Origin: an uncultured bacterium
GTDB lineage: Bacteria; Omnitrophota; Omnitrophia; Omnitrophales; Aquincolibacteriaceae
Direction of reading: 5' to 3'
NCBI GenBank assembly: GCA_964482725.1
Contig: CAYZYT010000002.1
Span: 5,591 to 69,590, forward strand
Length of the DNA: 64,000 nt
The position numbers were made by a program, and so were the translations under genes. The notes below the pieces were generated by a model. The model did not search any database. It was not told where the DNA came from and saw nothing but the letters and a program-made list of their open reading frames with translations. Of the stretch, positions 25,901 through 60,750 are shown piece after piece; the first letter of the stretch is position 1; every line of letters begins with the position of its first letter.

Positions 25901-28900
25901 ATCTCTCTGGTAGGGACCGGGACGGGCTACGACACGAATGTTTCCGGACCGGTCGTGACGAATCCGTCCTCCATCGCGATCGATTTCCAGGACAGCACCG
26001 CCTACACCGGACTTGTGTCGCAGCAATATTATCTGGATTTTGCAAACCCAGGCCAAGGAGCGGAGGTGATCCTCGCTCCCTTGGCAACAGGCGGGGAATT
26101 TGCGATCGACGGGCAGTTGACGGATAGCGGCTCGACCGGATTCTGGACCGCGCCTGCAGCTCAAAACGAAACGTTGACCCAGCTGGGAACGATCGATTTG
26201 GGGCAGTCCCAGAGGATTAACCAGATCACGGTCCAGTTGTGGGACGGGGAAAGTGCCCGGGTTTACTACAATTACAAAGTCGAGGTTTCAACGAATAAGC
26301 TGATATGGACCAGCGTTTTTGACGGAACCGGAAGTGGAGTGAATTATTCGGGGGCACAAACCATCAACTTTGTGGCTCGCGATGTTCGATACATCCGGGT
26401 CTCGTCAAGCGGCAACAGTACGAACGCCGTTGCGCATATTGAAGAAGTGGATGCGAGATTGATCCCGTATATCCCCGGAAGCGACCAATACATTGTGGTG
26501 AGTACGGTCAGCGGTTCGGCTTATGATACAACGACCAATACGAATACCGCGGATACCTATCGCTGGATGGTGGATTCCACGACCGGCGCAATCTACAATA
26601 ATTATGATTCCATAGACCGTCCTTCCGCAGGGGCCGCCTATTACCAGATGAATTTTGGAGCCGGCGCCGGAGGCCAGGTTCTGGAGCTTAATGTTCAGAA
26701 CCATGTCTACAATAGCTATCTGCCGGTCACGAACAGTGTCTATAACGTTCGCGTCGAGGTCTGCACCGGCACGACTTGCTCCGCCACATCCACCGATTGG
26801 GCCAGTCTCGGAACGATGGATATCGCCGCGTCATCCTCGGGACAGACCGGGCGTCTTGCGATCCCGGCGGGATTTGGCGGCACGCACAAAGTGAGGATCT
26901 TCTGGCTGAACGATCTTGCGCAGAATAGCCAGGACAACAATATTCAGATCAATAGTGTTCGCATTCTGGATCGAGCGCCGTCATCGCTCCAGCACATTGC
27001 GATCGAAGACGTCAGTCAGGGTGCTTCGGGTACGGCCGGGTACCGACGCTTTGGGCTTGTCGCGTTCCGCGATGAGGTTACGGGCTCGAATTATTACAAA
27101 GTCCAGGTGATCGAGGGAGGAACCCTTCGCTGGCTTCAGGACGATCATAAGCTCGACGATCTCCGGATCGACTACACTCCCACGAAGAGCTATACCGCGG
27201 ATTTCCGCTTCGAGAACGGCTCGATCAAGCTCTACTTCTTTGAAAAGGGAGCGAACCAGCCGGGGAATCCCCGGGCATCGATTTCGGCTGCCGGATGGCT
27301 GCAGGCGAACGCTCATTCATGGATCTATCGCGGCACGGCCAATATCCAGGAAGTCCGTTCCACTCAGACCGTGCTTTCCCAAAACTGGCAGTTCGCGGGC
27401 GCCTCGGTCAATAACGGCGTCATTACGCTAACGGGAACAGGAAGCAGTTATGGCAGCAATGTCTCCGGTCCGGCGGTTACGAACCCGACCTCCATGGCGG
27501 TCGATTTCCAGAACGGTACTCAATATACGGGAGCCGTCGCGCCTCCATATTACGTGGACTACGCGAGCGCCGCCCAGGGCGCTACTGTGATCAATGATCT
27601 CCAGACGGAAAGATTTTTCACCCCGGGACTTCCGGCGGGATGGACCACGGGCGGTGGGAACATCACTTATAATTTAGACGATCTTGTGATGACCGGGACC
27701 GGGAGCAATTGGAACACCAATGTTGCTTCCTCTTTGACTCCGGTGACCGAAGGGACGACTTATTCGATCGATTTTGCGACCCAGAATGCAAATACCCAGC
27801 TTTATCTGGCCGTGGACAACGGGGATGATTCTTCGTCGAGTTATAAACGTTTCGGGATTGTGCAGTTCTTCGATACCACAACCCAGAAGGCTTATTTCAA
27901 GATCCAGATCATTACCAACGGAACCAGTTCTTCAACCTTCGCAAAAGATGTGAACGGTAATGAGATTCGGATCAATTTCGAAGCAGCTCCAACGCATACG
28001 GTTCAGTTTAAATTTACCAATGGTCAGATCGCGCTTTCGTTTGACGGGCAGTCGGTTTACACGCTTTCCAATAACCTTGGAATGACAGCCTCGCGTTTTC
28101 ATAGCTACATCTGGAGTGGAAACGCCCGGCTGCAGGAAGTCCGTACGCTGACGACGGCGTGGGGTGCGAATTTTGCGATCGACGGAACTCAAACGGACAG
28201 CGGTTCGACAGGATTCTGGACGGTCAATACCGGAAATTCAATCACTCCCAGTACGGTGGCAAGCCCCACGAACGCGGAGCGTTTGGCGGAAGTGGGTGTA
28301 ATCGATATGGGGCAGCTGCGCACGATCAACCAGATCATGCTCCAACTCTGGGATGGGACGTCGTCCACGCGGGATAGCCGCCAATATTACAATTACATGG
28401 TCCAGGTTTCCACGGACAATGTTAACTGGAACACGATTTTTGACGGTACCGGAAGCGGCCAGAATTATCAAGGAGCGCAAACCCTGGATTTCACCGCGCA
28501 GGACGTGCGCTATATCAAAGTTTTTTCCAGCGGGAACACCACGAACAGCGGGGCCCATATTGAAGAAGTGACGGCGCAATTGGTACCCCCGAGTCCCGCG
28601 CTTCAACCGATAGACGGGGTGAATGGTTCTGATGTGATCGCCTCCATGACCCATACGTCTGGCACTCACCCCTGGGTCGTGGATTCAAGGAGCAACTCCA
28701 TTTCGAATCTATGGGATTCGTATGACAGCGCCGGAGCCGTTTACTATCAAATGAATTTCGGCTCTGCCGGGGACAATCGAGTTCTGGAATTGGATGTTCA
28801 GAACACTCCCTATAACAATTATGACCCGGTCGCGCTCAGTTCTTACAATGTGGTGGCCCAGGTCTGTCTGAAAGCAAGCTGCGCAACGGACGCGGATTGG

Positions 28901-34900: not shown

Positions 34901-37900
34901 AGGGCTCAAGCCCAGATCGCCTCCGCGATAGCCACGTTGAAACGTCTCGGGGGCAGCTACGCCACTATGGCTAATTTGGTTGAATTGGCGGGGAAAAGCA
35001 TGCTGGCATTTTCGAATGGGGGTACTTATGACATCGAATGCGCCAGCATCCTGGCAGGCCTTGTGTCTCGCTATATGCAGGGTGACAGAAGCGTTGCGCT
35101 TTTGCAGATTTCCGCCGACAGCTATGCGATCGTCGGCGCCGATTCGGTGACCACAAATCCTCTCACCGGAGAGACGGTCATCACCTATTCCGGGTTCTCC
35201 ACGAATGGAAAGAATAATGATGCCCACTGGATGAATATGACGGATACGATGCGAGCCGACGGTCAGATGTCACGCCGTGTGATCTCGAACCAAAGCAATG
35301 CCGAAGACACGATCACCATGGATTATGTCTACAACGCCGCCGGTCAGCTCCTCTATTACAACACACGTGTGGATACTCCGGATACATGGTTCATGTCAGG
35401 TTACCATTCGTCCAGTCGAACCTACGCCGACTCTTCCGCGGGCCAAGCGGCCATGGAGGCTGATTTTGCCGCGGCCGCCGCCACAGCGGGTATTTCGGTC
35501 CACGACTACATTGCGCAACACACCACGGACCGGACTTGGACTATCGATGAAGATCAGGCAGGAATTAATGGCTGGGGCCGCACTACGATTGTGGTGGTCT
35601 GTGTTGTTGTTGGTTTCTTGATCGGCGGTCCTTATGGCGCTATCGCTGGATTGATCGTTGGAATTGTTCTCTGTGTTGCCATCAACAATGCGGATAATTG
35701 GTTTGGAACTTCGGAGCAGAAAATGGCCAGTTACTGCATGGCGGCCGTGTTGGCGGTAGCTTCCTGGTATTGTCCGGCGCTGTGGTTGCTGTGGGCCGCG
35801 GTGTCAGCGGTCTGGACCTATGGCACGACAGGGGACTTGAAAGCGGCCGTAACCGCCTTCGCGATCGCCGTTGTCATGCATTACATTAATCTCGCTATAC
35901 CCGTCGAGGGACTAGGGACTGCTGCGGGAATAGCTGCAAGCACAATTCCTATTGTTCAGGCCATTGTCAGTTTTGTGGTTCAAGTGGCGATTTTGACAGT
36001 TATTAATATGGTGGTTTATGGGACTGCGGATTATCTTACGCAGTCGGGGCGTAACAAGAGAAGTTGGACCGAGTGCATGTCGGACACATCCAAATATGCC
36101 CTTATCATGGCGGTTATTGCGGTTGGAATGAGGTTCCTCGGGAGATGGTGGAGAGGAGAAAGCCCGTCGGCAAGCTTACGCCCTCCAGTAGCACCCAAAC
36201 CACCCCCTTTCAGCATTGTAGGGGCCTCGGCAATATTTTTATCTAATATTATGACGAGCATTGTTATGGGCTCGGAAGGGACGCAAGACACTTTAAAAGG
36301 ATGGGGCCTTGGCGAGGCCGAGGATACTGACAATCCCAATGATATTAATATCGCGCGTCGTGTTTTTTCAGGCGTTTTAAACGGAATGATCAGCGGGTTG
36401 GTTGGGCAGTTTGCGCCGGGTAACAGCATGCTCTCTTTCCAATTCTTGATGAGTGCCGCGATGGGAGGATTGAACGCTCTTTTTAGCGCAAGTATTGCCA
36501 ATGCCTTGATGCCGAGCGTGACTGCGGAAGGGATGTATTCAGAGGCTGTGACAGACCTGATGGGGAAATTCACGAGCGGTGTTTTTGATATGTTCCAAGA
36601 GAGCTTTTTGCAGGGGCGGCCCTTGACCGCGGCTCAAAAGGAACAGGCTTATGATACGGCCAAGGCGAGTGGCGCCTTTGACAAACAGGACGATCTAAAC
36701 GGACTGACGCTCGACCAATGGATAAACGGAAAGGATATCGGAGGTTGGCATGCGCAATTTGCTTGGAATCCGGATAAACAATGCGTCGCCACAACCCTTT
36801 TGCTTGGAGGGCGAGCGATCACCTTGCAGGGGAATCAGCAGCTCAATACTTTTCTGGGAATACTCGGGGCTGATCCGTCAAAAGTCACACCGGTGATGTT
36901 TATTACAGCGCTCGCAAAAGCGCTTTTTAATGCCGACGTAAAAAACCTCGGCTCCAAAAGCACGGCGGAACGGGCCCAAGAGGATTCCGCCAAAGAGTCG
37001 ATTAAAGTCGTGGTGGATGGCGTCACCCTTTCAATCGATGTCCTCCGATCTTCGGAGATGGTAACGCCTGAAGTGGCGGAAAGGGCCCTACGGACTTTTA
37101 TTTCAAAATATGGCAATCTGAAAACCCTATTGACGTCGGGCAATACGAACGCCCTGGGAGATCTTTTGGGAGCGATGCAGACGTCTATGAAGTCCGGGGA
37201 ACTTCGGGGCATCCTTTCCGTAACATTCGAAAACGTCAATCTTGGCAAGTTGGGGCTCGCGAGTTCCTTGACCGTCACGGGCGATTCGGTTTCCGCGACG
37301 ATCGAGTCCGCAGGGTTGGCCTGGACGATCACCGGCAAAGACTTCGCGGATATGCTTTCGGTCGGCGATCTTCTAAAATCTGCGTTGGATAAATCCGGAT
37401 TGGGGGCACTCCTGCTTGCCGGGGAAAGGGATTTTGGCAAGTTGACGGATGCCTTGATCTCGTTTGGCGATCTCCTTCAGCAGGGGCTTCTGGACGGACA
37501 AAGCATTAAGGCGACTTTTATCATGAAGTACACGGCAGAAAACGGAAAAGTGCTCGACATCACCGTCACATTCACGTGGACCAAAGATGCGGTGGCCTAC
37601 AACGCCACTATCAAATTGGCGGACGGTTCTTCCGTCACCATCGAGGCGACGGTCCGCAACACCAAAGAAGCGATCCACGATATCAAGACCGTCGCCAACC
37701 TTGCCGCTCAATACGATTCGCTTTATTTTACCCAAGCCAATATCGGAAAAGTGATCGAGTTTATGACGAGGGTATTCGACTTGCTGGGTCTGGGGGAGGG
37801 CGGTCTTTATGCGACTCAGATGAAGCTCACATTCAAGGACATCGAAGGGAATCTTTTTTCATTCACCTTGACCAAAACCAAAGGCGGAACGGCCGCAAAC

Positions 37901-40900: not shown

Positions 40901-43900
40901 ATTGCCCGCTTCAGCTTGGGTACAAATCTATTACTTCCTGGCTCGGATGCTCTTTTTGCCGGCGGAGCATCAGGAACCTTTGTCGGTTCTGGCTCTGTGA
41001 ACTGGCAGGATAAAACAGTGAGGATCCAGGATGTAAAAAGTGTTTCCTTGAATCTCCGATGGGCGCTGACCTCGAACGGACTCTATCAGAGAACGAACCT
41101 TGCGACGGGCGAATCGGACAGAATGCTCCAGGGCGATGGAGCGACGGAGTGTAAGAAAATCGTCGACTCCACTGGCGTTGCAAAATATGCAAATCAGGGC
41201 GAGATCCGCTCCGGGGCCACGGTTGTTTACGAAGGAACGAACGTTGACGGAAAAACAGTTTTTGTAGGATACGACGCGCTGAATCGGTTCGTGCTCTCCG
41301 GCACGGTGATCGGTGGCAGCGTCAGCATTCAAAATGCCATCAATTTTTCCAAAGACAGGTCCTGGACCGTTTTGCCTAACGGCACTTTGCTCACCACCCA
41401 GATCTCAACGGGGATCGTACTGTCTGCCACGAATGCAAAGGGAACCGCTTTGCCGATGACGCGAGTAACAACCACACGGAACGGTCTTGCGGAGGCCGGA
41501 ATCACGGGCGTTGCTCTTGATCAGAACGGCAAGAAGATCCCTGTCAATTTGACAGTTCCGGTGGGGAGTTGGGTTCTCAAGGACGGTACGACGACGCTGT
41601 TCCTCAACGGAGAACGGACCAGTATTTTTGGGATCATGAACGGTGTCCAGATCCAGCAGTGGATCACGGATCAATATGTTCTGCAGGGTGATGGAAGCGG
41701 ACTTGTGATTGCGGATCGTTTCTCTGGAAAGATCCTCGGTGGATGGGACATCCGCAAGGGGGATACCTTTGGACGGGCTTTAGAATGGAAAGCCGGGGAA
41801 GTCATGAACGCTGCGGCGAGGCAGGGGGCAGAACGTCAGGTGCAGGAAGAGGTCCAAACAGCCCTGGAGACTCCGGCGGAAGTGGCTCCTGTATCCGTGA
41901 TGGAACAGTTGGTCTTGGAGATCGTGGCACAATCGCTTGAGGGAACAGGTCTGACCTTAGGCGCCAACGGTGCTCTCGAAACCATCCCAGAGGGTTTTGT
42001 GGCGATCGATCAAACCCAGATCGTCAAGGCTCAGCCGGTCACCGCGGTGAATTATAAAAATCAGGCCGGAGTATCGCAGACTGCGAACTTGATGACCCCG
42101 TCCAAGGCGCTGGTAAGCGTCGGGGCGACGGAAGCGACGACTCTCCGGATCTTCATGGACGGTGAAAGCAAGATCGTAGGAACGACCGTGGGCGATGTGC
42201 GTTACGCCAGCTCGATCGTCTTTTTCAAAACTGTCGATGCGAATGGGAATGTGAACGGATTTGTTCAGAATCAAGGGACCGGCTGGATTGCGGTGATGAA
42301 TGCTTCGGGTATCCTTGTGGGCGGCTTGGATATCCGCGATCCGTACGCGCCGCAGGCGATGGTCTGGGAAACTAGCGCCATGAACCCGCTGGGGCAACGA
42401 CAATACACCATCACAGATAAGGGCGAAGCGAAAACACTGACGCTTGACCGGTCGACGCAGGCACTCGTCGGGCGAAATGCTGATAATCCGGAGGCGACTC
42501 TCCGCGTCTACGCGAACAGAAATGCAATGACCGGCTCGTATGAAATCGCCGGAGCGACGCTGGGCGGTCTCTCCGACGCAGCTCACATTATTTTCTTCCG
42601 CGCCGGTATTTATTTGCTTTCCGGAGATTCTGTGGCCGGGATTGCTTCCGATATTTTGACTGTCCAAAATACCTTAACGCAGGAGTTTCTGGGGTATTTG
42701 GGTGCAGACGGAGCTTTTGTCTCCGGTGCGGCGGCCGCGCTTTCAACTCCTGAAGCTCGTGCTGTGAATTCCCAAGCGGGTATCGGAAAAGGTTCGGTTG
42801 CTTACGATCATGTTTATCGGGTCAAGGGCGCGGACGAGAAATATCACGGTTATTTCTATCAAGGCATCAATCTTGTAGGAAAAACGGTAGCAAACAACCT
42901 CAAAGACGTCGGCCAGCTTGGAAGCAATAATGCGAAGCAGGGGCTTCTGACCGCATTCTATAAAGTGGGCGAAACTCTTTACACTCATAGCGCGAGCGCG
43001 CTCCAGAACGGCGATTACGGGGTTTATCTTGCGACCAATAAGGCGGGAAAACCTATCGGAATGATTGGCGTCAGCGGTGCGTTCTATGCGATAGAAACGT
43101 TGTCGTCTCCGACCGAGATCAATTTAAATACCCGCACCGGAAGCGTTGCGTCTCGGCAGGGTGAATTTCGTTTGCGGGCGGATGCCGGGGAAGGTGGAGA
43201 ATTTTATTACACCTACCTCGATCGGAATCAGGCAGAAATCGTCACGATGCGCATGAATGACAAGGCCGCCCTGTCGAGCATGACCCGGGAGGGTTTGATC
43301 GTGGCTGACGTTTTGAAACCGATCGAAGGCATGAGCTATATGGCGTATCAAATCGCCGGATTTACTTATGTCTTGAGTCCTAAATTGGCTGAGACTCGGG
43401 CTCTCGCGATCTTCGATCGCAGCGGCCGATTGACCTCTTATCTCAATGAGAATGGAACGCTGGGAAGTCAGTATCAGAAGGATCCTGCGGCCGCAGGCGA
43501 ATTGATGACGGTTGCCAGGATCAACGGTTTTGACCACGATCGCAGTTTTGGGGTGGTGCGCGCGGATGGCCAGATATTCCGCATCTATGTGAAGGGGAAC
43601 GACGCGGTACTGTTGGCCACGACGTGGGAGAAGCCCGACAGCGGGCGGTCGGTGGATCAAATGATGAGCGGCGCTCTTTCGGTCGCGAATCTCGATCAGG
43701 CAAGCACCAATATCCTGTTCGTTCAAACGGCGGATTATTTCTTCCGAGGCATTTCGCAGTCTTCCGCACGGAGTATTTTCCTGAGGACCGACCTGAGAAC
43801 CGGGGAGACAAACGGGATTCAGGGGGTGAATGGATTTGTGGCATTCCCCGTGACCCATGTAGCTTTGCTGGATCCTTTGGGCGATGCCCAAAAGCCTTTT

Positions 43901-46900
43901 AAATTTTCGACATTTATGCAGGTTCAGGCCCGGGATCGGGCTGGGAAAGTTGTGGAAGCGGGTTTGTACTTGAACAACCAAAGGGAGGTCGTCGGATTGA
44001 TCTCTGCGGCTCAAGGAACCATGCTGGCCGCAAATATGCTGATGTCGACCCATGAGTTGATCCAGACCGTATTTTTTAAGATCGGCGGGATCACTTATTC
44101 CCCCTGGTTGCCTGGTATTTTGCAGACGAGGGACGCTTCCGGACAATTGGGCGCTTACGATATCAAGACCCGGGAATATGCCGTCGTGGAAGCTTATGAT
44201 CCCCAAAAACACGGAACTGCTTCGTTTACGCATCCTGGCGTTAAAAATCCGATCACGCTCAAAGCGGACACGGTCCTTTTCTTTAAAGGGAAAACGCTGG
44301 CTGAAAACCGGCTGATCTTCCTGAGTAACGGTAATTTTGTTGCTTTCCAGGTGGGGACGGTCCTCCAGACGCTTTATGACGGAAATTATCGCGTTCAACT
44401 GGAATCGGGTTCCTGGTACTCCATTGCGGAAAAACAAGGAACCGAATATGTTCCCATCGCGGGTTTGACCGCCGGGAAGGTCATGGTACCACTCTATGAA
44501 AAATCAACGACCGAGGCGGAAGCCTTGAGAGCGAGCCATGAACTTGGCGCCGGCCAATCGCTCAATCCAACGGCAAGAGACGGCTCGTCATTAGCTTCGG
44601 TCAAGAGTTACGGTCTCGCGCGTGCGTCTAAGGTTTTTGCCGACGCAACCGGGCGGACTGTAATCTTTTGCTCGAAAAATGAGTCCGGACGTTATGAAAC
44701 GATCGCTGTTTTTAACAATACTGAAAAACAGAGAAGCATTGGCTTTCTCAACACCGGCACCTACATCATCCAGCCGGTCCGGGGCGGTTTGTATGAATAT
44801 TACAGGGTGACCCCGGAGGGTTCGAGAGGGGCGTTGCTTGGCTATAGCCTGATCCAGGATCCGACCGTAACCGGGAGAATGGTCACGGATCCAAGGACGG
44901 TTGCCGGAATGGCGCGTGAGGCTTCCTTCACGACCACGGGGACCAAACGTACCTTGGACCTCAGAGGGGCAACCGCAGTACTTGTATTTGGAGATGCGAA
45001 GCCCGGAAAGAATCAAAACGAGAAAATATGCACTGTCTTTTTGGGGCCTGACGAAAGAGGCGTAACCGGTGTCATGGCGGTCTTTGATGGCCGCATGCCC
45101 GAGCTTACTAACCCGAATCGCGCGGGGGTCCTTGCCGCCCAGCTTCAATATGCTCATATTGGAAGCACCTTTTATACAAAGGCTTTAACTTCGACGGATG
45201 GTGTAGTGCTTTCAACCTACAATGCCGCCACCGGACGCACGGAATATTTTGGCGTGACGAGCGCAGGCATGGGCGTCGAGGCGACCCAGCTCAATGCGCC
45301 TGAAAACAGGTCTTTCTCGGATTTCCTGAACACGGAACTGGGACGGGTGTTTGCGGGCGAGGGGGTTCACACCAGCGCAACTGCGATGCTGATCCGTTTC
45401 GGGAAGACGGAAGCGGTATTGGATCCTGCCCGGACGGATAACGAACTGGTTTACTCTAATGTGTCTCGTGGGGAAAATTATCGAGTCGTGACCTATGTTT
45501 CTGACCGGGGATATGCGTATGCCGAAACCTACGAAAAGAAACCGATCCGGTGGGATGCTCCGAGTGGCGCCAGGAATGTAAACACGAACGTCCCGGACAT
45601 GCGATCGCCGAGTGTCCTGATCGATACACTGATCAGTGCCATCACGAGGGATCCTTCAGGAAAGATCGTGCAGGCGTGGATCTCGCAAACGCCGGGACAG
45701 TATTACGGGGCTGAACAGATCCGCGAATCGACACGGTACTCCGGAATTTCCTTCATTGAATATGCGAAGGACCAATGGGTCAGCCTGAGTCCGTGGGAAA
45801 CCGGTGTGAAGATCTATTCGGAAGGCACCAAGATCCACGAAGTATACAGCGGCAAATTCGTAGCGTTCGGGGAGGTTCAGATCAGGGAGATGACCGTCAC
45901 GTACGATCGCTTAAATCCCAATCGTCCTGAGGCCTACAAATTTGACATTGCGTGGAGTGTTGCTCATGACGTGGAATTCACTGTGAATGACTTGATGAAG
46001 ACCGGAATGGCTGCAACGATCAACTGCCAGCAATTCGGCGGGCCCAAAACGGAATTCGTTACGTTCTCGATCAATCGTGACGGAATGATCACAGGGCTTT
46101 CGCAAATGAACGACGAGGAGTTTTCAGATGCAGCCCTCACTTATGACTCGACCGGTGTTTTGAGCACGATCGACACTCATTCTTCGTTCAACCGCCTGGA
46201 AACAAAGTCTTTGGATTACTTCGACACCTACGGACAATTCGTCCGAAGCGAGGAGTATTTCACGAACAATATCACATGGACGGAACTTTCTTTAGGCCAG
46301 CAAGTGACCGCCATCGGTACCGGTGTTGCAGCCGTAGCTGCCGCAATTGCGGTAACGGCATTTACAGGGGGAACGGGCGTTGGGGTTTTTGGATTGGTAG
46401 GAGGATTAGGGTGGAGTGCGACAGCGGCTATTGCGGCTGGCGGTGTCACTGCTCTCGGGATCGGCGCGACGATGTATGTAAGCGGTCGCGTTGGCGGTGT
46501 TTATGGCTGGCAAGTGGGTGGACAAGCCGGAATAGCGGTGGGTGCTGTGATGGTCCTGATCGCTTCCGGCGGTATTGGCGGCACAGGCTGGGTCGCGTGG
46601 GCCGGCATGGGTGGCATGGCGTGTTATGTGACTCATTTTGGTTTGACTGAATTCATGGGCGTTGATAGGGACAATTTAGCCATGAAAGCTCTTGATCTTG
46701 CCGGCATGGTGGGCATCTGGACCGGGGTTGGCGCTGCTTTGTGGAAAGGCATGGTCGGGAAGGTCGGGGCAACGGCCATCGGTCGTTATCTGACGCGTAA
46801 TTTCAGCATAGAAGCCGGGGAACGTCTGGCGGTTGCCGAAGGCCGGAATGTCGCGGCAATGGGAGCTAATAAATTTACAAGATCGTTTAATTTGACAAGA

Positions 46901-49900
46901 CTGGCATTCGAAAAGAATTTCAAACCCGAAGTCCTCAACTTAAGTTTGCGTTTGTGGGACGCGACGCAATTAGTTTCAATAAAAGCAGCCTTGGCAAGTA
47001 TTCCGGTGGTTACGATGGATACCATTCTGGGAGGTGCGGTGATTGCGGTCATCGCGGCTTTCTCGATCCAGTTCCTTGCCGGTAACAATCTGACCATGGC
47101 GGAAAAAGGAGCGCTTGTCGGCGTTGCGACTGCTTTAGGGCTCGCACTCAGCTATGCCATTGCCCGAAATGTTAGTGCCTATGCTTTGGGACGCTGGACA
47201 ATGACCATGCAAAAAGCGCTTACGAAAGAAAGAAGTCTTGTTCCTTTCCGGACAATGAGAGATGCGGTTAAATCTTTCGCTCCAAGCGCAGTATTTAAAG
47301 GTTCTTCCTATGCGGGTTTTCAGGAGGTTTCGAATTGGGCGATTGGCGCTGGTATCGCAACGTTTGCCGTAGGCCAAATGATCGATTCGCAAGAGCTCAA
47401 GTTTGTTGGACTGGTCATCGGCGCCGGAGCTGCACTGCCGCGGATGTTCCTCTTTTTCTTTGGAAACCCAATTGCCCTTATGAACAATAAACCCTGGACA
47501 TTCAGCCAGGTCGCGGCCGGACTCGGCATGCTGTCGGGTTGGTCTGGTGTGATTGTCGCGTACGGGGGATGGAAGACTGGATCTGAAGATTATAAATCCT
47601 TGGGCAAGGCCCTGATCATGGCCGGATTTGCCATGCGGGCACTGGCCGGGGCGATCGGTGGGGCTACGGTTTTTGGACTTAAAGGTGAATTAGATCTCGG
47701 CCTGATGGCAGGATCCAAACTAAATGCGACATTCCTGCTCAAAGTTCCCGGGGAAACGGTACTCGACAGGCTTTGGGCTCAAGGAGTTAAAAGCATCTTA
47801 TTCTTCCGGTTCTTCGGTATCGCACAAGCGGCTTTTGGGATCGATCATATGGTGGATGCGATCGCGTCTTCTCTGGGGTACCAGACCCCGCTTCTCGCGG
47901 GCGATAAAAATGATCCTGATGGGTTGGCAAAAGCCGGCTATTGGAAGCACCTCGGCCAGGTTCTTGCCAAAGAGCTTGGCATTGGAAGAAACGTTTTTCA
48001 GCAGGGCGGCCTTCTGGATGTGGATCGTCTGGCCCATGACTTTATTCTCGGGTTCCTGATGCATCATGTCGGGATCACGTACCGTGGAGGCACGGGCTTT
48101 CTTAAGACGTTGGGAGAGAAACAAGGCGTGGTTAAATTTGTGTGGAGTTCCTTGAATCCCGCATCCTTTGAGAGAAGGTTGGCGGCAGGACAATCTCAGT
48201 CGCTGGGTATGGCGGCATTCCATTTTGCGGACAACATGCTTATGTTCAATCTCGTAGTCGCGCCGCTCCAGGCTTGGGCAACCCTTTATGGAAAAGAAGC
48301 CGCAGCAGAAAGCTCTTACCGCCAGCAGATCCTCCAACTCGGAGAGATGCTTGGGGCTTATTTTATGATGCCGCTCTCCGCGGTTTTTGCCCTGACCGGA
48401 AATACAGCAGATGAAAAAAAGTTCGTGGGCGATCTCAACTCCTTTGGCATATTCCTTGTCCCTCAGCACGGAGGCCGGTTCGCGTTGGATTACTTTATGC
48501 AGGAATTACGCGGTGAATCCACCAAGCAAATGGGCGAAAGAATCGGCGGCGAAAGATTGAGTGAAGAGAAAAAAGCCAGCACGGAATGGCAAAGAGACCT
48601 CGGAACAAGCATCATGGCGGAACGCTTGAATGATCTGGCACGAACAAATCCTGAATACGCAAAACGCATTATGGTAGATCTGCAACAGGTCGGAACTTTG
48701 CAGAGCCTCGCTGATCGTGCCAATGAAGCGCCTCTTGGAGTCAACGAAGCGGTCCGTCTGCTCGCTTCCGGTGATCTTGGCAAGAGCGTGGATCTTATGT
48801 TCAATTCCAAAGCGTTAGGGATCTTCGTCCAGGATCTTGGCGCAGAGCTTTATCGATCCGTTGTCTCCCGGGAGGTTGAGGGCGGTTTGAAAGACACGTC
48901 GGCGGATCAGGCTACTAAAAATATGAGAGTCGCGATCCTGAACGGGGCCAAGGACGGAAGAAAGATCTCGGAAGTTTGGAAAGACCCCGATGTCGGGGGA
49001 GAACTGGCGATGCCCGAAGCCTGGAGATCAGCGGCCGATCTTGTGATCACTGCAAGTCTTCGACCGATCGTGGCCTCCCGGTTATGGGAATTGCAATCAA
49101 AAATGGCTGAAGGCCTATTCAAAGAACTTGGGATATTCAAAACGAACGCTCTGAGCGGTCGTACGGATGCGACCTTTACCTATGACGGTTACAGACTTTC
49201 GAATGAAGGCGTCAAAGCCCTGTCCATCGCGGCGGGCGGGAATAAGGATTATGTCGGTTATGCCAGAGACTACATCCAGCGCAGTACGTTGGCGGGGATG
49301 AAGGATCGAGCCCTTGCCGAAGCCTATGAGAAGGGTGGTTTTGATATCCTTACGTCCGATCAAAAAATGCTATTCCTTACCGAGTACTCCACGGCGCTCA
49401 AGGATCTCTTCAGACCTCTCACGGAAAGTGAGCTGGGCCCCGGATTCCTAAAAGCGATCCTGGGCGTTTATGTAACCGAAGTCCTCACAAGGGCTTCGGA
49501 TATTATGACCGAAGGATTACGAGACGGGAGCCTGAAAATCGAGGATGGCTTGATTCGCACCAAAGACGGCGCGGAAATAGACCTGTTTAAGAATATCAAA
49601 CTCCGGGAGGACCGACTTGCTACGACCGGAAAAGACGGAACGTCCGAAGAGCAAAGACTGATCCGTGCGATGCTCGCCGGCAATGAATTGCAGAACAGGA
49701 TGATCACCGAATTCACGAAAAAGATCTCGGACCAATACCAGGCGGTTTTGATGGCGAAAGATGATGTCTCTCTGGCTGCTGCCTTGACAGCGCTTTTCGG
49801 ATCCGCGGAAAATGTGACCGAGATCTGGGGCATGCTCAATGGGCTTCGGGCCCGCTTTGAGGCGCTGGGCCTCGGGGAGATCTTCAGGAGCGAGGCGGGA

Positions 49901-52900
49901 GATTTCCTGGCATCCCAGATGTTGGGTCAGATCAACGAAGGCAAGAATGTTTTTAGTCCGAAAGCTTTGTATGCCAAGACCGGGGAGGGCGATGCAGCCA
50001 AAGTCACCGGGATCCTTGCGAACTACAAACGGCTTGCAGAGAATGTCGACAATGCCAAGAACAGGGATCTTTATAAACTAACGGAAGACGTTGATCCCAT
50101 GGTGAAGCTATTGATCGATGGAGCGTTTGATCAGATCGGCCCCATGATCATCGCGGAACTGAATCGGATCAGATCAGGAGGCATGCTTAGTTTTAAAGAG
50201 AGAGAATCTTTTAACGGTATCTCGGAAGGAATTGTTAACGAAAATGGCGAAGTGATACAGACGAACAACATTTTCATGGTTTGGAAGAACAGCCTCAAGA
50301 CGGGGTTGGCAGATCGGCCGGCGGTTCAACTGCTGGAGGCTGTCGTGGCGAAACTCCGGGCGGATGGCAAAACTGAAAGAGCGGCGGAGCTTGAGGCGAA
50401 AAGAGAGGAATACGAGTCCAAGGATCAGACCGCTCAAAGGACCGACCTAAGGGCTTCTCTTATTACTGAACTGGCCAAGCTTTATTTTGGAAAATTCCTT
50501 GATTTTGCCAAGACGATGGTCGCGAACGGCCCGAATGGCGGGCGTTTATTTGCCGAGACTTTTGCGGACAAATCCCTCCGTTTCGACCTGATGGATCCTC
50601 TGAGCGCTCTTTCCGCCGGGGATTCGGTCCGGTCGAATCTCGAGCTTTTGGCTTTCGCGAACGCAATGTGGGAAGCGAAGGGGTGGTGCGTCACAATCGA
50701 ACAGATCGACAGTTTCATGAAAGCCAAGACCGGCCATATCAACGCCGCGATGGGCGCCGGAAAAACGCTGGTCGGCGTTGCCCTGATCTCTTCGGAAAAT
50801 ATCGGGATCGTCCTTGTCCCGAATTCTGCGCTGGCGCGGAATATGATGAACGGTCAAGACTTTCTCTCAGTCATGTCAGGCGGCACCAAGAGCTTTGTGG
50901 ATGGGATCGCTCTTATCGAGCAGATCCGGAGCACGGATATGGCGGTTTCAAAAGCGGCGCTTGAAACATTCCTTGGGTATCTGGAAGCCAAGGACAAAAC
51001 GGCGATTCTTGTGACAGACCGGGACTCTTTTGGCCATTTGAAGAATTATCTTCATACCAATTCTCATCGCTATGGAGAGCTGCGCAAGGAATACAATTCC
51101 GTCTATGAGCGGTTTGAAAGAGCCTATGAAGCGAATAAGAAGCTCATGGATGAGATCCATCAGTGCGCCAACCCGATGTATTTTATCATTGGCGGCGATC
51201 CCATCAAGGCCGGCGAATCAATGCCGAATTATCGGCTGTTAAAGACCATTGCGGATGTGCTGGGAGGTGTGGGAGAGGACGGGAGACCCGATGTAACACA
51301 ATCCCTGATGCGATACGAAGGGGATAAGGATTACGATCCGGCAAGGCACATCCTTGTTCTTGAAGAAAATTCAGCGAACACCCGAATGCTCCGGGAGCCC
51401 GGATGGAAGAACCGTGCGGTTGTGCTTGTTCGAAACAAGGAATTTGTGGCCTGGTCCAATTATGATGCGATCAAGAAGGTTCTGAGGAGTGACCCACGGA
51501 TCATGGCGGAATGGGATGCTGTCGCCGGAAAAGCGACACCGCTTTATTCCTCGGAACTTGCTTCGATCTTGAGAGCGTTGGTGATCCGGTCTTCCGATTT
51601 CAGCGCCATTCTCACAATCCTTGGCAATCAACTCGGCGTTGACGGCGGACAATACCGGCCGCGCAGTTTTGAAGGCAAGCTCGAGACAAACCAGATCATC
51701 GAGGATACGGCCTGGTTGATCGGCGTACGGAGTCTCGCAAACAGTGCGCTGCATGTAAAGGAAATCGGCGGAAAGAGATTGACGGATGAACAGCGGACGG
51801 AGTTAAAAGAAGTTGTTCGAAGTCTCTATCTCCGGAACCGGAGAGCCGACGAGATCCGGAACGGCGAATCCCGAGATGCCGAGTATCACCTCGAAGTGAC
51901 TAAAACCGTCACGGCAGTCAGTATGTATGACCTTTTTGCCGGAGAACGCAGTTTTGGTATGTCCGGGACCTTGCTGGAGGTCCAGATCCCGATCGAAGTC
52001 CTGAGCGGCCGCAAGACAGGCGTAGTGACAACGGAGGGGGAAACGCTTTCCTATCTGACCGAAATGTACGCCTCCTCGAAACACGGCATGAATCAGCGGC
52101 ATAGCTTTAAGGTTTATGACCAGTTCGGAGGAACGTCGCGTGTCGATCTTGCGCTGGCCCATTATTCCGGAGAGCGAGCGCCGGGAATGGAAAACCTTGC
52201 GATTAAATTCACCAAAGGCGCTTCCACGCTTGTTGGATATGGCAATGACGGTTCCATGATGACCGATTACAAAAAAATTATGGAGCGAGGGTTTGTTGAC
52301 GGCTTAACTCATTCTGCCATTCGCGATTTGTTGCAGGTGAAGAATAGCTATGATGCTAAAAAGAGTGCATTGGAACGAGCTTCTCCGGCGGAAAGAACCG
52401 CGTTGGAGGCAGAAGTTGATGCGCTGAAAAAAACTTTAGATTTAAAATCAGCGGAAGTTAAAAAGCTAAATATCGTTCTTAAGATCGACGGCCGGTTGGG
52501 AGATGAAGGCATCAACAGTGTTGACGGTGTGAAGAAAATCTTCAATGCTTTAAATGAGCTCAATGCCAAGGTTCTTTTGTTGACCAATTCGCGCGGTTTG
52601 ACGGGCGTGGACTACCAGGCCACAGCCAACTTCCTTCTTTTTGCGGGAAGCTTCACAAATGCCCAGCTTATGCAGGCGATCTGGCGTATCGGTCGTACGC
52701 GAATGGATGGAAACCGGTGGGAAAGTCATGCCGCGGTTTTTGTGGATGAGGCACGTTCCGAGGCCCTGCTCCAGAGTCTGAGGGTTCAGGATCCTGCCAA
52801 GGGAACTTATGCAAGTATTGATGCTTGGACGGATTATTTCCGGACCCGGTGGGCGGATGCGCGGACCCGGACCGGGCTTATCTTTGAAGGCTCGGACGGC

Positions 52901-55900
52901 AGACAGAACAGCATCTTTGAGGTTCTCGAGAAGGTCCGGGATGGCGAAAAACTTACAGCCGAAGAGACGCTTTACCTTTCCACCATGATCAACACGGCCG
53001 AGGCTTCGTCGAAGACCGCCAAGTCGCTTCTGGAACAATTGATCACGTTCCGCGTGATGATCGATCCGGTGAAGGCCGCTTATCACCGGGCGCTTGGACT
53101 TGGCGATCAGCAGGCGGCCGATCTGATCATGAAGTTCGGTGAACATTTGCATCGCCAGTTAAAGAGCGATGTCGGATTGGAATATTCTTCGGATTATACA
53201 AAGGGAGACGCTTACGTCCGTTCAGTCTTGCGTGAGCGTGCCGACACGATCGCCAATGAGCTTTCTATGTTCCTGGATGGCGTCGTAACGAAAAAAGGAA
53301 TGGTTCTGGATCCCGAGACTTCTGGGAAGGGAGCAATGCTTCGGCCGGAGATCCGGGAGATCCTGATGGGTGCCAAGGTCCAGGCCAATAAGATTCTCGA
53401 CAAATTGACCGATTACAAGGATATCGAGAGAAAGACAGATGCCGCCCGCGGCGTTGCTCAAGGGGACTTGAACCGTCGCACGGATCTCTCAGCCTCGGAT
53501 AAGGCGGAGATCCTGATCAAGATCTCGCAGCAATTTGCGATCGACATTTCGCCCGAAGCGTCCAGACGAAGTCCGACGCCGGAAGCCATCCAGCGTATGA
53601 AAGAACAGAATACGTACAAGGTCAGCAATGAAGCGACCGAAGGTCTGCGGAAGAACAACGCCGACGTTTTTGATAAGGTGGCTCAAGCGGGCGGTTCGGA
53701 GAACCTCTTCTATGAGCGCAATGCCGGAGAGACCACAGGGACCTGGACATTGCTGGGGCAGACGTTGAACATGACCGAAGTACAGCTGCCGTCCGCTGTG
53801 ACCGCCATGGCGGAGATCGTGGGCGTTCTTTCGATGATGCTCAATGCGGACGGGTCGATGTCCCTCGCTCCTGCGCTGGACTACGCGGTTGACAAGAATC
53901 CGGCGCGACTCACACTTAGCGAAGAAAACTGGAAATGGAGCAAACAGCGTTCCCAGGGATTGGGAGAGGTTGTGGCTCTGTTCAGTGATTCCACAAAAGT
54001 TAAAGGGCTGTTGCAACTTCAGACCTTGCTCGATCAACTGGATGGATTTACAGCAACAGACCGGAGTATCCTGATGGAAACCGCAAGCCTGAAAACCTCC
54101 GATTTCGGAGACATGCTCAAACTCCTGAAGGGGACAAAAGGGTTCAATGAACGCCTTAGAGTGATTGCGTTTTATCTACCCAAGCTTGGGAATGATGCAC
54201 AAACGGAACTGGCACGACGCGATTCTAAAGATCTGACTCTTTTGACGCAGCTTAACGAACAGGTTGGCAACCTCAAAAAGATCGCCCGGTTTATCGCAAA
54301 CTATGTGCCGGAATTCAGCGGTAGCGTCACTGAATTGACAGGGGTCAACCTGGTACAGGTGTGGCTCGCACTCAAGACCGTAGATCAGGAGATCAATGCT
54401 CAAAGTGCTGCCGCTCGCAAAGATCCAAAACAATTTGCAAAAGCGATGCTTCCGATCGTGCTCAAGACGGCCATTCTCGGTTCTGAGGCCGTGAATCTCA
54501 AAAAGCGTCAAGCTCTCCTGAAAAAGACCCTGGAAAAAGCCGGTCTTCTGGCGATTGCGGATGCGGCCATGGAGCCCGTTGAAGGCCTTTCCACGGAAAA
54601 TGGTGATATCCTGGCTCTTGTGGCTCAGTCCGTACTTTTGCAGCGCGATTTCCAGAAAGGCTTTTCGAGTATCCGGGAACGGCTTACCATGATCCACGAG
54701 CTTCAAACGACCGGTATGACCCCTGAGGATAAAGAAATCCTTTCCATAGATCGCGTGGCCAATCTTATCCAAAATAGTCACTATACAGAAAATGATGTCA
54801 AGCAAGTGATCCGCCTGGCCAAGGAGTTAAACTCGAAAAAGATCCGTTATTCTTCCGCGGATGATGTGATCGAGCTTTACAGACAGGGAGTTCGCGAAGC
54901 CCAAGTGGCCGGAATCCTGAGCGCGACCGAGGAACAAGCCGACATCCAGATCAAAGACGCTTCGGATATCATCCAGATCATCCATGTGTTCGGTCTCGAT
55001 TTCTCTGGAGTGGAAGCGGGGATCGCTTACTTGAAAGAGAAGATCCGTGATCCCCAGTTTGTTAGATCTGCAGCCGCAAATCATTTCCTTAAACCGATCC
55101 TCGATGCGACCGGAGCTGTGACCGGATTTGAAGTGGTGGATTTGACGGGGAGGCGTCGCGGCTTACTCGACGGCCTTTCAGATCTCCAGGACATCAAAGT
55201 TCAATATCGCGGCGGAAATTGGATCTTCCGGAGCAGCAAAAAAAGCGACTTGCAGAATAAAGATTTGTATGTAGAACTGAATGCCAAGCGATTGGAACAG
55301 CGGGTCTATGACCATGACCAGGTCGCCGTCACTTTGATCCGCGAAGGAACCGAACTTCTGATCCACGGAGTATCTTTTAATGGCGGACAGCCACTTCGCC
55401 TGGATACATTCACAAACGCGACGGCATTCCGTACTGGTTGGCGCGATGTTGAGGGCGGGCGCGTTTTTGAGATCCGCGCAGAAGGGGACAAAGGAATCGA
55501 TATCGGTCGCGTCCAACTCATCTTCGATCAGAACGGACACCTCGTTCAGGCGGATCAGCAGAACCGTCCGGGGCAGGAGAACGTTCATCCTGAGGTGCGT
55601 GTACTCACGCCCGGTGGCCAAGAGCTTCTGGTTCTTCCCGTAATGCCTGAGATTCAGCGTGTGGGGACGGACGGCGTCACTTACGTCCTTCGATCGCAGC
55701 TTCCCGGTACCCAGGCAACCCCGGAATTCAAAGTACCGTTCACAGGTACCGTGGATCTCGCAACCGTTCTTCCTTTCATGAAGGATCTGATCGAAGCATC
55801 TCAATTTGATGCCAATATTGATCCCACGGTTAGCGGCGAAGATCGTGCGAACAGGAGAACGACTTCCTATAAGCTCGGAATTCTTTTTGAATTAATGATG

Positions 55901-58900
55901 AATCTTGACGCCGGCGCAAAATCCAAGCTTATTGCGTGGTGGAAGGAAAACGGTGTGACACAGACCGGTAACGAAGTCACGCTGATCCAGGCGATCAAGC
56001 AACTCTTTTCGGGAGATACTGCCGCTCTTGTGACGATTGAGGCTCTCGAACAGCTTGTTTCCCAGAGGATCCGGGATCAAAAAGAGCTGGAGTCAATGCT
56101 CCGGTCTGAAAAAGCGTTGGCGCAACATGATGGTTCCAAAGCTGATGCCAACGACCGGGCTTATCGCGTTGCCGCGGCGGCCTCCCGGTTGCAGTCTGAT
56201 TCGCCAGAATACGCCGCGATTTTGGACGCGTTTAAGGTTGCTTTCTTGGACCAACATCCAACGATTACCGAGAGAGATCTGGTTCTGGACTCCGTTTATT
56301 CTCTGGTGATGGACCAGATGTTCGGCAAAGGCACCGACGTTCCGGATAATGTCATCAAAGCCAAGCTGCAAGCTCGAGAGATCAAGAAAAAGGAAGAGCA
56401 GAAAGAGGAGCTCAAAAAGGAGCTTTTGAAATATTTGCAATATCGGACGGATCTTAAATCTGCGAGTATCGATGAGCTCTTGGGATTTTTCAACGATCCG
56501 AAGGTTTTGGAACGTTTGGATGAGGATCAAAAGGCCTTGTTGGAGCGTGTCCGCCAGAAAAAAATGTTCGTCGATTTTATCAAGGCCAATGCTGGGAAAA
56601 TCTCCGAGCAAACGATCCCGGGAATCCTGGACCCATTGAAGTCTGAGATGGTCCGTGATTTTGTGGATGCGGCGCCGTTCTGGGACCTTTTCCAGTACGC
56701 CCGGAATTACTACTTGGCGGATGCGAATCATAACGAACTTTTGAAGATCCAGAAAAGCACGACACTTTCTGTGGACCAGAAGGCCGAGCAAATGGCGGAA
56801 CTTCTGGCCGAACAGATCTCCCAAAACCAGGATACAACTCGCGGCGTAAGCAAGGATAACCGTGACATCCTCAAGACGAAACTGAAAGAACTCCTGCGTC
56901 GCGGTTTTGAGAAAAAACCCGGGGACGAAACGATCCGGGATTATGTCCGTTTTGAATTTGACCGAGGTTCCGAACTTGCTAAGCATGTAAACGCGCCGTG
57001 GCGCCTGAACCATGGCTACCGGGACATTCCGGTCGCTGCATTGATCTTCTATGGGGATGCGGCCAAAGAACTCGAACATGCCTGGTATTTTCTGGGTAAT
57101 GATTGGGGCCGGAATTCTGGTTCTGAAGTGATGATCGCAAAAGAGTTCAAAGGCAGAGGAAAAGGTCAGGCTATTTTTAGTCAGACAGGGTTGATGCTGA
57201 TGGATGAGCGCTGGTACAAGGCCTCGATCCCGCACGAAGAACTGCACTTGATCTATCCAAAACCGGCGCTTCTATGGCCGGACGCGGATCCGCAGGTCGA
57301 AGAAATCATGAACTATATGGCTCAGGTTGAAATGGACCTTTACGACCGTGAAGAAGGTCGCAAGTATGATCTACAAAGGCTCTTTGCAAAGATCGAGCAG
57401 TATGCCCGAAGCGCTCAGTTTGATACGCGCAAGATGCAGGCCGCGGCCAAAGCCATGCTGTATTTGCTGGAAGCGACAGGAGATCTTGATTTCGTCAAGA
57501 ACGTGTTGCGGAATTCCGAACATCTTGAAGATATGATCGCGTGGCATTATTTTGACAAGGTTGAGATCGCAGGGATCCGCGAACGCGCCAAGAGCGGTCT
57601 CACAGCGACCGGATCGGCCAGCGAGTGGAAGGATTTTATGAACGGTGAACGGGCTGCTGCGGTCGATGAAGTCCGGAAAATGCCACAAGTCACGACTGAA
57701 GAAGCCAAGGCGAAGCGGCTGGATGCTATTTTATTCGAAAAAGTACAGGCCTGGCAAAAGCGGCTCGGGATTATGCCGGATTCCGAAATTTCGAAAACCG
57801 TGATCCAGGCCTCCGTTCCGGCCCTGCGTCAAGATTGGTACGGAGCGGCCGGGATCCAAAATTACAAGGCAGATGCGAGCCAGGATTTTACCGCGATCTT
57901 CAAAGAAAATACGCCGGGTTATCAAAAGCTTTTTACCGACTTGAAGAGCCTCCTTGAGATCCCGGGGCAGAGCTTTGATACAGCTCAGGCGGAAGCCTAT
58001 ATCGTCAAAGTATTGGGCCCTGCGTGGACAGTTCAAAAGGATCCAAAGAGCGGCGTCCTGTATCTGGAACATGTGCTCAGCGAAAAGGGTAAAGAATCCT
58101 ATGCGTTCTCGGCCCACACGGACGTGGTCCGTGAAGTGGATGGTGCCGTGGCGCCTGTGATCGATTCGTTGGGCGTGGTGCGGAATAGTAATGCGAATTC
58201 CGCGCTCGGTGCGGACAACCGGGCTGGGATAGCGATGATTCTCTCCCTTGTGGGGGATGCGGATTGGGTGAAGCAATTGCAAGCTTCAAATCCTGAGCTG
58301 CATTCACTCAAGATCTTCTTTTCCAACAGTGAAGAGGTCGGCAAAGGGATCCTGGAGATCCTGGACAATATGAAGCTCCGTCAGCAGTGGCTTGGCAATG
58401 TAACCGAAGTTTTTGCTTTTGATCGTCAGTCCGGAACCATCGAAAAACGAAAAGCCAAGGATATTTCGGGAAAAACTTATGATACGGGAACTTTGGGGGA
58501 GCATGCCGAAGTGTTTGTCCCGGCGACGAAAAAAGATATCAAAGGAAGCCGCTATGTCAAAACGCTGAGTGATGCAGCCGCTGCAATGAACTTGCCGAGT
58601 TTGGCGATCTTCAACGGATTTACGGCAGGGACTCAGGAAAGCGAAAACCAGAACGGTGATTTTGCCAATATGCTGGCAGTCCAACCGGATCCGGAGAACG
58701 GCACGATCAGGAGCGTTATCAATTTTCATGATGGCAGCACGAATGCTCACGAACGAGGTTTCGAAAACACGGATCTCCGAACCCTTTCGGCCATGATCGA
58801 ACTGGCAAAAAAGACCATTAGCTCTATTGCGGCGGCAGGGCCGATCGAGGAGGTTGCCGAAAAGGTTGAGGCCGGGCCAGAAAGACGTGCGGAGGAAAGG

Positions 58901-60168: not shown

Positions 60169-60750
60169 ATGACTCATCCAAACTCTGAACGATCAAACCA
60201 ACCTCTCGCCTCATCCTCCGAAGGGGTTCGAAAATCAACCCCTGTTGAGGCCTCTTCGTGGGCCAAGACGACGGTGGTCGTGATAGGTTCATTGCTTGTT
60301 CTCTCATCGATTTGGCAGATGCTTATATTCCTTAATTATGCGCACTACCAGTATGTGTTCCGGGAGTATTCCGAAGAGATCATTCAATTCCGGTATCTTT
60401 TGTCCTTGGGCTCTCGATGCCTGGGGATGGTGATTGGCCTTGGCATCCTGCTTCGCAAAGAAAATTTCCGGAAAGCCGCCATCGTTCTGATGGTTGCAAC
60501 GATTGCCCTCATGGTGTTTAAGCATCCTTTTTCGGCGGCGCTGCAGCTTAATCGCCAATATATTAATGCGTTAGATGCGATTTTCAAAACGGCGCCTTTC
60601 AATGCCGATATTCTTATGAGTTTTTTTCATTCGATAGAAAGACCCCTGGCATACTTAGTGATCATTACCGTGATTCTTGTGGACGATCTATGCGCGCTTT
60701 TGATCATATTCTTTTTGACACGACCTTCGGTTAGGGCTGTTTTTCGCTAG
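60169..60750 (+). CDS. Hypothetical small integral membrane protein (193 aa, about 4-5 TM helices), co-oriented 48 nt downstream of the giant gene.
   Basis: ATG at 60169 with AGGA 7 nt upstream and a TATAAT-like box at 60150-60155. Hydrophobic helices VVVIGSLLVLSSIWQMLIFL, LGMVIGLGILL, AAIVLMVATIALMVF, LAYLVIITVILVDDLCALLIIFFL. Confidence 0.55.
   Translation: MTHPNSERSNQPLASSSEGVRKSTPVEASSWAKTTVVVIGSLLVLSSIWQMLIFLNYAHYQYVFREYSEEIIQFRYLLSLGSRCLGMVIGLGILLRKENFRKAAIVLMVATIALMVFKHPFSAALQLNRQYINALDAIFKTAPFNADILMSFFHSIERPLAYLVIITVILVDDLCALLIIFFLTRPSVRAVFR

Follow-up and report, generated by a model that had tools for sequence, protein, structure and literature searches.

The giant open reading frame (ORF) analysed here lies on a 64,000-nucleotide (nt) stretch of contig CAYZYT010000002.1 from an uncultured bacterium of the Omnitrophota (assembly GCA_964482725.1), the whole of which is called the window, and encodes a protein of at least 19,986 amino acids (aa), its reading frame continuing past the window's left edge. 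In Omnitrophota, whose members are thought to be predatory or symbiotic and have tiny genomes, several percent of the genome is given over to giant genes, and there has been almost no knowledge so far of how the giant proteins are made, exported and used. The C-terminal part of this protein, in which a transmembrane (TM) cluster is followed by an ATPase and by peptidase-type domains, is the subject of the present analysis.

The giant gene and its domains

The region behind the second of two TM clusters comprises aa 15,897-19,986, that is, 4,090 aa, in agreement with the roughly 4,100 aa given in an earlier reading made from the DNA letters only (the sequence-only reading). The switch to a charged C-terminal composition described in that reading is borne out by composition counts, as the share of S+T+G+N falls from 33% to 23% past TM cluster 2 and that of D+E+K+R rises from 19% to 26%. 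All of the motifs that it listed are present, 1-11 nt off the coordinates it gave, and what it had overlooked were the HENEH motif, the juxtamembrane domain and the Ala-Ala C-terminus. Across all 19,986 residues, G.GK[ST] and DE[AIVL]H each occur once and HExxH occurs twice, every time inside the C-terminal 4,090 aa. Because these motifs are so rare in the protein and are moreover invariant or almost so in family alignments, the set is more than a product of chance. The resulting module runs, in order, from a TM cluster through a juxtamembrane domain, a superfamily 2 (SF2) ATPase, about 1,400 aa of helical sequence, a domain with HExxH…EE and a slot of variable content to a second zincin-like domain and a terminal domain ending in Ala-Ala (Table 1).

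Table 1. Features of the giant gene and its surroundings, in window coordinates
Feature	Position (nt)	Strand	Remarks
Giant ORF, 19,986 aa	161..60121	+	open at window 5' end; stop codon 60119-60121
F5/8 type C (discoidin) domain	26096..26449	+	aa 8,646-8,763; Pfam E 4.9e-18
TM cluster 1	35588..36265	+	aa 11,810-12,035; about 5-7 hydrophobic helices
Repeats	41018..41830	+	aa 13,620-13,890; match repeats before the TM cluster in P0005, P0006 and P0008
TM cluster 2	46292..47665	+	aa 15,378-15,835; about 8-10 hydrophobic helices
Juxtamembrane domain	47378..48475	+	aa 15,740-16,105; FFGNP, GIDH..D, R..HD, DN..FN, LVPQ
Helical spacer 1	48476..50707	+	aa 16,106-16,849; weakly conserved, no family match
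SF2-type ATPase	50708..52780	+	aa 16,850-17,540; motifs I, Ia, II, III, V, VI
Motif I, GAGKT	50753
Motif Ia, LVPNSAL	50819		position of PNSAL
Motif II, DEIH	51149		aa 16,997
Motif III, GMSGT	51956		aa 17,266
Motif V, LTNSRGLTGVDYQ	52601		position of TGVDYQA
Motif VI, QAIWRIGRT	52673		position of QAIWRIGR
Post-ATPase helical region	52781..56947	+	aa 17,541-18,929; conserved, collinear with relatives, no family match
HEELH domain	56948..57610	+	aa 18,930-19,150; HEELH 57233-57247, EE about 57299
M20 / peptidase T-like domain	58028..58840	+	aa 19,290-19,560; in the variable slot
M20 motif AHTD	58112
M20 motif DNRAG	58214
M20 motif EEVG	58331
M20 motif AFDRQ	58415
M20 motif AHERG	58745
Second HExxH domain	59303..59560	+	HENEH at aa 19,770 (nt 59468); weak SprT-like / M48-like zincin signal
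Terminal alpha/beta-like domain	59561..60118	+	ends …SVATAA
193-aa ORF	60169-60750		47 nt past the giant gene; several hydrophobic helices, no family match
yqeY-like gene	about 61375-61821	-	syntenic neighbour
VWA+TPR gene	61976-63949	-	syntenic neighbour

The relatives of the module and its gene neighbourhood

When a profile of the ATPase was run exhaustively with HMMER over 1.84 billion representatives, 15 proteins only came back, nine of them 4,454-7,157 aa long. The window protein is collinear with these relatives at 24-33% identity (BLASTP), and the collinearity spans the TM cluster, the juxtamembrane domain, the ATPase, the 1,400 aa behind it, the HEELH domain and the C-terminus. In total, the module from TM cluster to C-terminal end is collinear in about 19 relatives at 24-45% identity, and in every member the landmarks GIDH, LVPQ, Walker A, DExH, GMSGT, first HExxH, second HExxH and C-terminal end follow one another in this order and at similar spacing. 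Word-indexed searches yielded one 609-aa fragment, from an Omnitrophota metagenome-assembled genome (MAG), when the ATPase was the query, and no homologues when the last 1,087 aa were used. Scanning GTDB species, each by one genome, revealed 12 family loci, all at most 31% identical; all nine that carry a taxon name are from Omnitrophota MAGs, the other three being labelled 'uncultured bacterium', and six additional loci came from a scan of Joint Genome Institute (JGI) metagenomes. Family members are rare and, judging by the record labels, confined to Omnitrophota. In one Omnitrophota MAG, AM-lipid-02-D9_bin-1187, two paralogues are found on different contigs (locus L012 on CAISGE010000065.1 and locus L013 on CAISGE010000021.1), with ATPase regions that are 59% identical.

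The part in front of the module differs greatly in length, the TM cluster being preceded by about 570-2,450 aa in relative ORFs that start with Met and by more than 15,000 aa in the window; complete relative ORFs of 6,072 and 6,133 aa were found. Two members, P0002 and P0004 (the latter identical with locus L004), lack a TM cluster and begin with a Met that precedes the ATPase by about 800-1,400 aa; the contig of P0004 has a stop codon shortly before this start, and the upstream DNA is missing. TM cluster 2 is homologous to the single TM cluster of the relatives, and the idea that TM cluster 1 is a duplicate of it was rejected, the two sequences being without similarity. The ~12,000 aa before TM cluster 1 have no counterpart in the shorter relatives. 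Because the repeats at aa 13,620-13,890 match those that precede the TM cluster in relatives, aa 12,036-19,986 look like one whole family member with ~12,000 aa and an unrelated TM cluster placed in front, as though a family member had been extended or fused N-terminally with a second membrane-anchored giant segment.

At a Pfam threshold of E<=1e-3, F5/8 type C, with two matched stretches, is the sole family in aa 1-15,896, where DUF2960 also gave one sub-threshold match. No RHS/YD repeats were detected there at this threshold, which disagrees with the 'YD-shell' N-terminus of the sequence-only reading, and neither dockerin nor TSP3 repeats were found in the in-window part of the protein, whose N-terminus lies outside the window. 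The discoidin-bearing N-terminus is probably extracellular.

The order of giant gene, yqeY and VWA+TPR gene, the latter two on the minus strand, is common to the window and to three other family loci, L009, L023 and L005. Because both neighbours are kept in these three other genomes, the giant gene is best regarded as a vertically inherited, very fast-evolving positional orthologue and not as a mobile toxin cassette. The YqeY proteins of L009, L023 and L005 are 82%, 79% and 55% identical to the window copy, respectively, while identity to L009 is 24-33% for the giant-gene modules and identity to L023 is 30% for the HEELH domain; the giant gene diverges far faster than the genes next to it.

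The ATPase, the peptidase-type domains and the variable slot

The juxtamembrane domain, into which the final helices of TM cluster 2 extend, contains 21 invariant residues and a further two helices of moderate hydrophobicity; it is second only to the HEELH domain in conservation within the family, and searches of Pfam and the PDB gave no sequence match to it.

In the ATPase, motifs I, Ia, II, III, V and VI stand in SF2 order and are invariant or nearly so in a 12-sequence alignment, a conservation also seen with 18 sequences; the ~265 aa between motifs II and III are unusual. Among 12 family members, Pfam Helicase_C is matched in five (best 4e-6), ResIII in five (best 4.6e-5), T1R_D3-like in three and DEAD in one (6e-7). 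These matches, together with the conserved motif set, sustain the SF2 helicase-like ATPase of the sequence-only reading, and of the families it had proposed for profile searches, type III res (ResIII) and DEAD were matched in members and SecA was not. The structure prediction it had also proposed, an AlphaFold2 model with a predicted local distance difference test (pLDDT) score of 66, has two RecA-like lobes that are recognised by fold, with matches to generic RecA lobes only (~180 aligned residues). The best PDB sequence match of the ATPase profile is XPB. Judged by motifs and profiles, this is a divergent SF2 ATPase for which no subfamily is favoured. It differs from SF2 translocases of DNA or RNA, such as Snf2/ERCC6, the R subunits of type I/III restriction enzymes, DinG/XPD and DEAD-box proteins, in that it is embedded in a 20,000-aa membrane protein and has the ~265-aa insert, and accessory nucleic-acid-binding or nuclease domains were not detected with it.

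According to the accessible text of West-Roberts et al. 2023 (10.1101/2023.11.21.568195), divergent SecA_DEAD and SecA preprotein-binding domains are found behind the TM anchors of most giant proteins in Omnitrophota, and self-export has been proposed for those with 'SecA-like' domains. SecA and the window ATPase are both SF2-like two-lobe enzymes, SecA works at the membrane and the window ATPase adjoins a TM cluster, and the preprotein cross-linking domain (PPXD) of SecA occupies the same position as the window's insert, between motifs II and III. By eye, DEVD…TPLIISG in SecA resembles DEIH…PMYFIIGG in the window, and TNMAGRGTDI resembles TNSRGLTGVDY; SecA 291-329 and GMTGTA are among the weak collinear blocks given by hhalign, and the collinear chain score is marginally higher for SecA (115.5) than for five other Escherichia coli SF2 proteins (86-107). 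In the 12 family members, however, Pfam SecA_DEAD and SecA_PP_bind had no match at E<=1, in which the family departs from the published giants, and SecA was absent from the matches of the PDB search with the ATPase family profile. The best local hhalign score against E. coli SecA was 30.0, versus 42.9 for UvrB, 40.5 for RapA, 36.7 for RhlE and 34.7 for HsdR of the same species, so that SecA aligns no better than RapA, UvrB, RhlE, HsdR or DinG, and the insert exceeded 120 shuffles against the E. coli SecA PPXD through generic motif III only. To the helical scaffold and wing domains that follow NBD2 in SecA there is a resemblance by eye only, no such domains being detected in the window protein, and a search among viral contigs for diverse SecA sequences from which to build a SecA profile found none. 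With none of Pfam, PDB profile, hhalign and PPXD shuffles rising above generic SF2 similarity, the ATPase was not filed as SecA-like. It may possibly be so, but the tests made here lend this family no support for the 'SecA-like' label that published work gives to such ATPases.

The HEELH domain, 220 aa long, shows the strongest conservation in the family (48% mean column identity). An alignment of 10 sequences has H96, E97, H100, E118 and E119 as invariant residues, the EE pair lying 18 residues past the second His of HExxH, and a putative gluzincin-like metal site is suggested. The HEELH…EE motif noticed from the sequence has held up as an invariant family feature, though one that matches no known family: in 10 members no Pfam match at E<=0.03 and no meaningful PDB match was obtained, and a word-indexed search with the alignment returned no homologues.

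The single variable slot of the module, flanked by the HEELH domain and the last zincin domain, is occupied in the window by the M20 / peptidase T-like domain. With a four-sequence family profile, this domain matches the PepT structures 3gb0 (3.8e-7), 3rza (7.1e-7) and 1vix (2.7e-6), and it is also matched by an NCBIfam PepT-like model and, at 3.4e-9, by a PHROGs 'peptidase' family. The PepT alignment takes in H-x-D, the bridging Asp and Glu-Glu, and the Asp of AFDRQ and the His of AHERG complete the ligand set; the candidate metal ligands are H19319-x-D19321, D19352, E19391-E19392, D19421 and H19530, and D63, E102, E103 and D132 are invariant in the four-sequence alignment. Like PepT (MEROPS M20B, clan MH), the window domain has H-x-D, the bridging Asp (ADNRAG) and Glu-Glu (EEVG), with a later Asp and then a His in the expected order. 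Unlike PepT, which has ~400 aa, it has ~270 aa, of which the first third alone aligns significantly, and it is fused within a giant protein as one of several alternative slot occupants. The M20-like peptidase that the sequence-only reading saw here is, by these matches, a real domain. At motif level only, the slot is M20-like in the window and in P0007, P0010, P0012 and L013, holds a JAB-like HNHP motif in seven other members and has GNAT-like and kinase-like motifs in some; in L009 a JAB-like motif takes the place of the window's M20 domain. The second HExxH domain gives weak zincin signals, being SprT-like in four of 11 members (best 0.003), with M48 at 0.007 and BepA at 0.15.

The last two codons of the gene (60113-60118) encode the end of a protein that reads …QQSVATAA, and in an 11-sequence C-terminal alignment the last two columns are invariant Ala. 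Complete members end in Ala-Ala or Ser-Ala, mostly as …VAA, …IAA or …SAA (P0002-P0012, L003, L005, L009, L013, L020-L024). An Ala-Ala C-terminus resembles the end of the ssrA degradation tag, and at a guess, drawn from this analogy, it might be a built-in handle for ClpXP or FtsH.

Conserved core, translocase or cargo

All relatives share the C-terminal module, the part before the TM cluster varies and the gene is syntenic, and for these reasons the C-terminal ~4,600 aa are read, from the comparison of sequences, as a conserved core and not as a delivered effector. On the ground of the observed domains, their order and conservation, the variability of the N-terminus and the positional orthology, aa 15,380-19,986 are probably the core of a rare Omnitrophota family of giant surface proteins, serving as a membrane-tethered base for motor and processing functions. 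The most economical model is that the module acts as such a base for the giant protein itself: the ATPase, placed beside a polytopic TM cluster and the juxtamembrane domain, would provide the energy by which the extracellular giant part is exported, assembled or remodelled, and the metallopeptidase-type domains and the slot enzyme would process polypeptide or peptides. The module is likely to be cytoplasmic, because an SF2 ATPase needs ATP and the slots of relatives carry motifs of enzymes that use acetyl-CoA or ATP.

Several points weigh against this model. The nearest detectable relatives of the ATPase, by sequence and by fold, are nucleic-acid translocases and not SecA, and the window ATPase itself scores 19.3 bits against Pfam ResIII (E 0.001), below the gathering score of 22.5. 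The PepT match covers profile positions 17-109 of 286, the N-terminal third only, and the NCBIfam PepT-like match (E 9.6e-6) reaches 24.8 bits versus a family cut-off of 274. Hydropathy and charge do not resolve the number of helices in the Gly/Ala-rich TM clusters; both the cytoplasmic placement and the giant extracellular part as the substrate of the ATPase are putative. In addition, to judge from P0002 and P0004, which lack the TM cluster, the module may also exist as a separate soluble protein or as the product of a split gene.

The overall layout is already present in the accessible literature on Omnitrophota giant proteins, where it was outlined in 2023, and the statement that accompanied the sequence-only reading, that no such architecture was known, was too strong. 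As set out in the accessible part of 10.1101/2023.11.21.568195, the 'Dockerin-type' giants share with the window protein a long TM-free N-terminus, a TM anchor near the C-terminus and, behind it, an ATPase of helicase type, intracellular in those giants and probably so in the window protein; they differ in that no dockerin or TSP3 was detected in the window part of the protein, which is cut off N-terminally. Discoidin domains in the N-terminal part, peptidase and GNAT-type domains and extreme divergence are further traits common to the window family and the giants of 10.1101/2023.11.21.568195, PMC10066038 and 10.64898/2026.06.07.730766, as far as the accessible parts of these sources go, and the taxon-named relatives of the window come from the same phylum as those giants. 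The accessible parts of the same three sources were found to mention neither this family's fixed order of modules, its HEELH domain and its variable slot nor the Ala-Ala C-terminus, the yqeY synteny with its extreme disparity in rate and the failure of the SecA label.

The main rival to the membrane-tethered processing base is a true helicase or translocase of nucleic acids at the membrane, engaged for instance in the uptake or processing of prey DNA or RNA, to which the peptidases would be unrelated add-ons. It is a possibility of clearly lower standing. The Pfam families matched in members (ResIII, T1R_D3-like, Helicase_C and DEAD) are all nucleic-acid enzymes, XPB leads the PDB sequence matches, and by eye the motif V consensus GLTG[FV]DYQ seems close to the corresponding motif of type I restriction R subunits. 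The fold matches, however, are confined to the generic RecA lobes, hhalign comparisons with single E. coli SF2 proteins favour no subfamily, the 4,100 aa yielded neither a nuclease nor an OB-fold, a Zn-finger or any other domain that binds nucleic acids, and no defence-system or phage helicase model matches.

A bolder form of the processing-base model is that the module is a self-contained, SecA-independent machine for export and assembly, in which a membrane-tethered SF2 ATPase of a new subclass, along with the TM cluster and juxtamembrane domain of the module, would thread or remodel >15,000 residues of the same polypeptide, with zincins that cut it and with the Ala-Ala end as a handle, like that of ssrA, for turnover by ClpXP or FtsH. 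This is rather improbable; if true, it would amount to a novel way of secreting proteins. The second proposal of the sequence-only reading, a self-contained machine for attachment and injection or for remodelling, may likewise hold.

It was suggested in the sequence-only reading that the C-terminal region follows the logic of polymorphic toxins, as an effector delivered by an adhesin/YD-shell N-terminus. Like RHS/YD toxins, the window protein is a surface protein of very large size whose C-terminal end carries enzymatic domains, the slot differs between members, with M20-, JAB-, GNAT- and kinase-like motifs, and a small membrane-protein ORF follows directly behind the giant gene. The pattern of conservation, however, is the reverse of that expected: the ~4,600 C-terminal aa are conserved and the N-terminus varies in length, and the proposed check of whether homologues keep or swap the region has shown that they keep it, with one slot alone varying. 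Moreover, the region depends on ATP and sits behind a polytopic TM cluster that separates it from the N-terminal part, neither RHS/YD repeats nor a toxin family match was found in it or before it, a conserved immunity gene is lacking, the downstream ORF is absent beside the relatives, and the giant gene is vertically inherited at a syntenic site, all of which makes delivery as cargo very unlikely. Even less credible is an origin of the module in phage or conjugative 'polyvalent' proteins or a defence system later fused to a surface protein, for which the helicase and zincin content and the one PHROGs peptidase family matching the M20 region might speak, as matches to toxins, defence systems or phage polyvalent proteins were not found, PHROGs gave no helicase match and PADLOC none above noise, the BFVD fold search gave weak generic SF2 matches with none at E<=1e-3, and the gene context in Omnitrophota is chromosomal and syntenic.

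An appealing toxin-cargo reading is corrected in this way, and one family is seen to keep a fixed module of ~4,600 aa while its extracellular part varies in length and sequence. In place of a 2-MDa protein, the module offers defined pieces that can be expressed, namely the 690-aa ATPase, the 220-aa HEELH domain and the 270-aa M20 domain. As for the 193-aa ORF just behind the giant gene, it is not present beside the giant gene in relatives and was found on two short Logan contigs only (SRR12261223 and SRR12261225).

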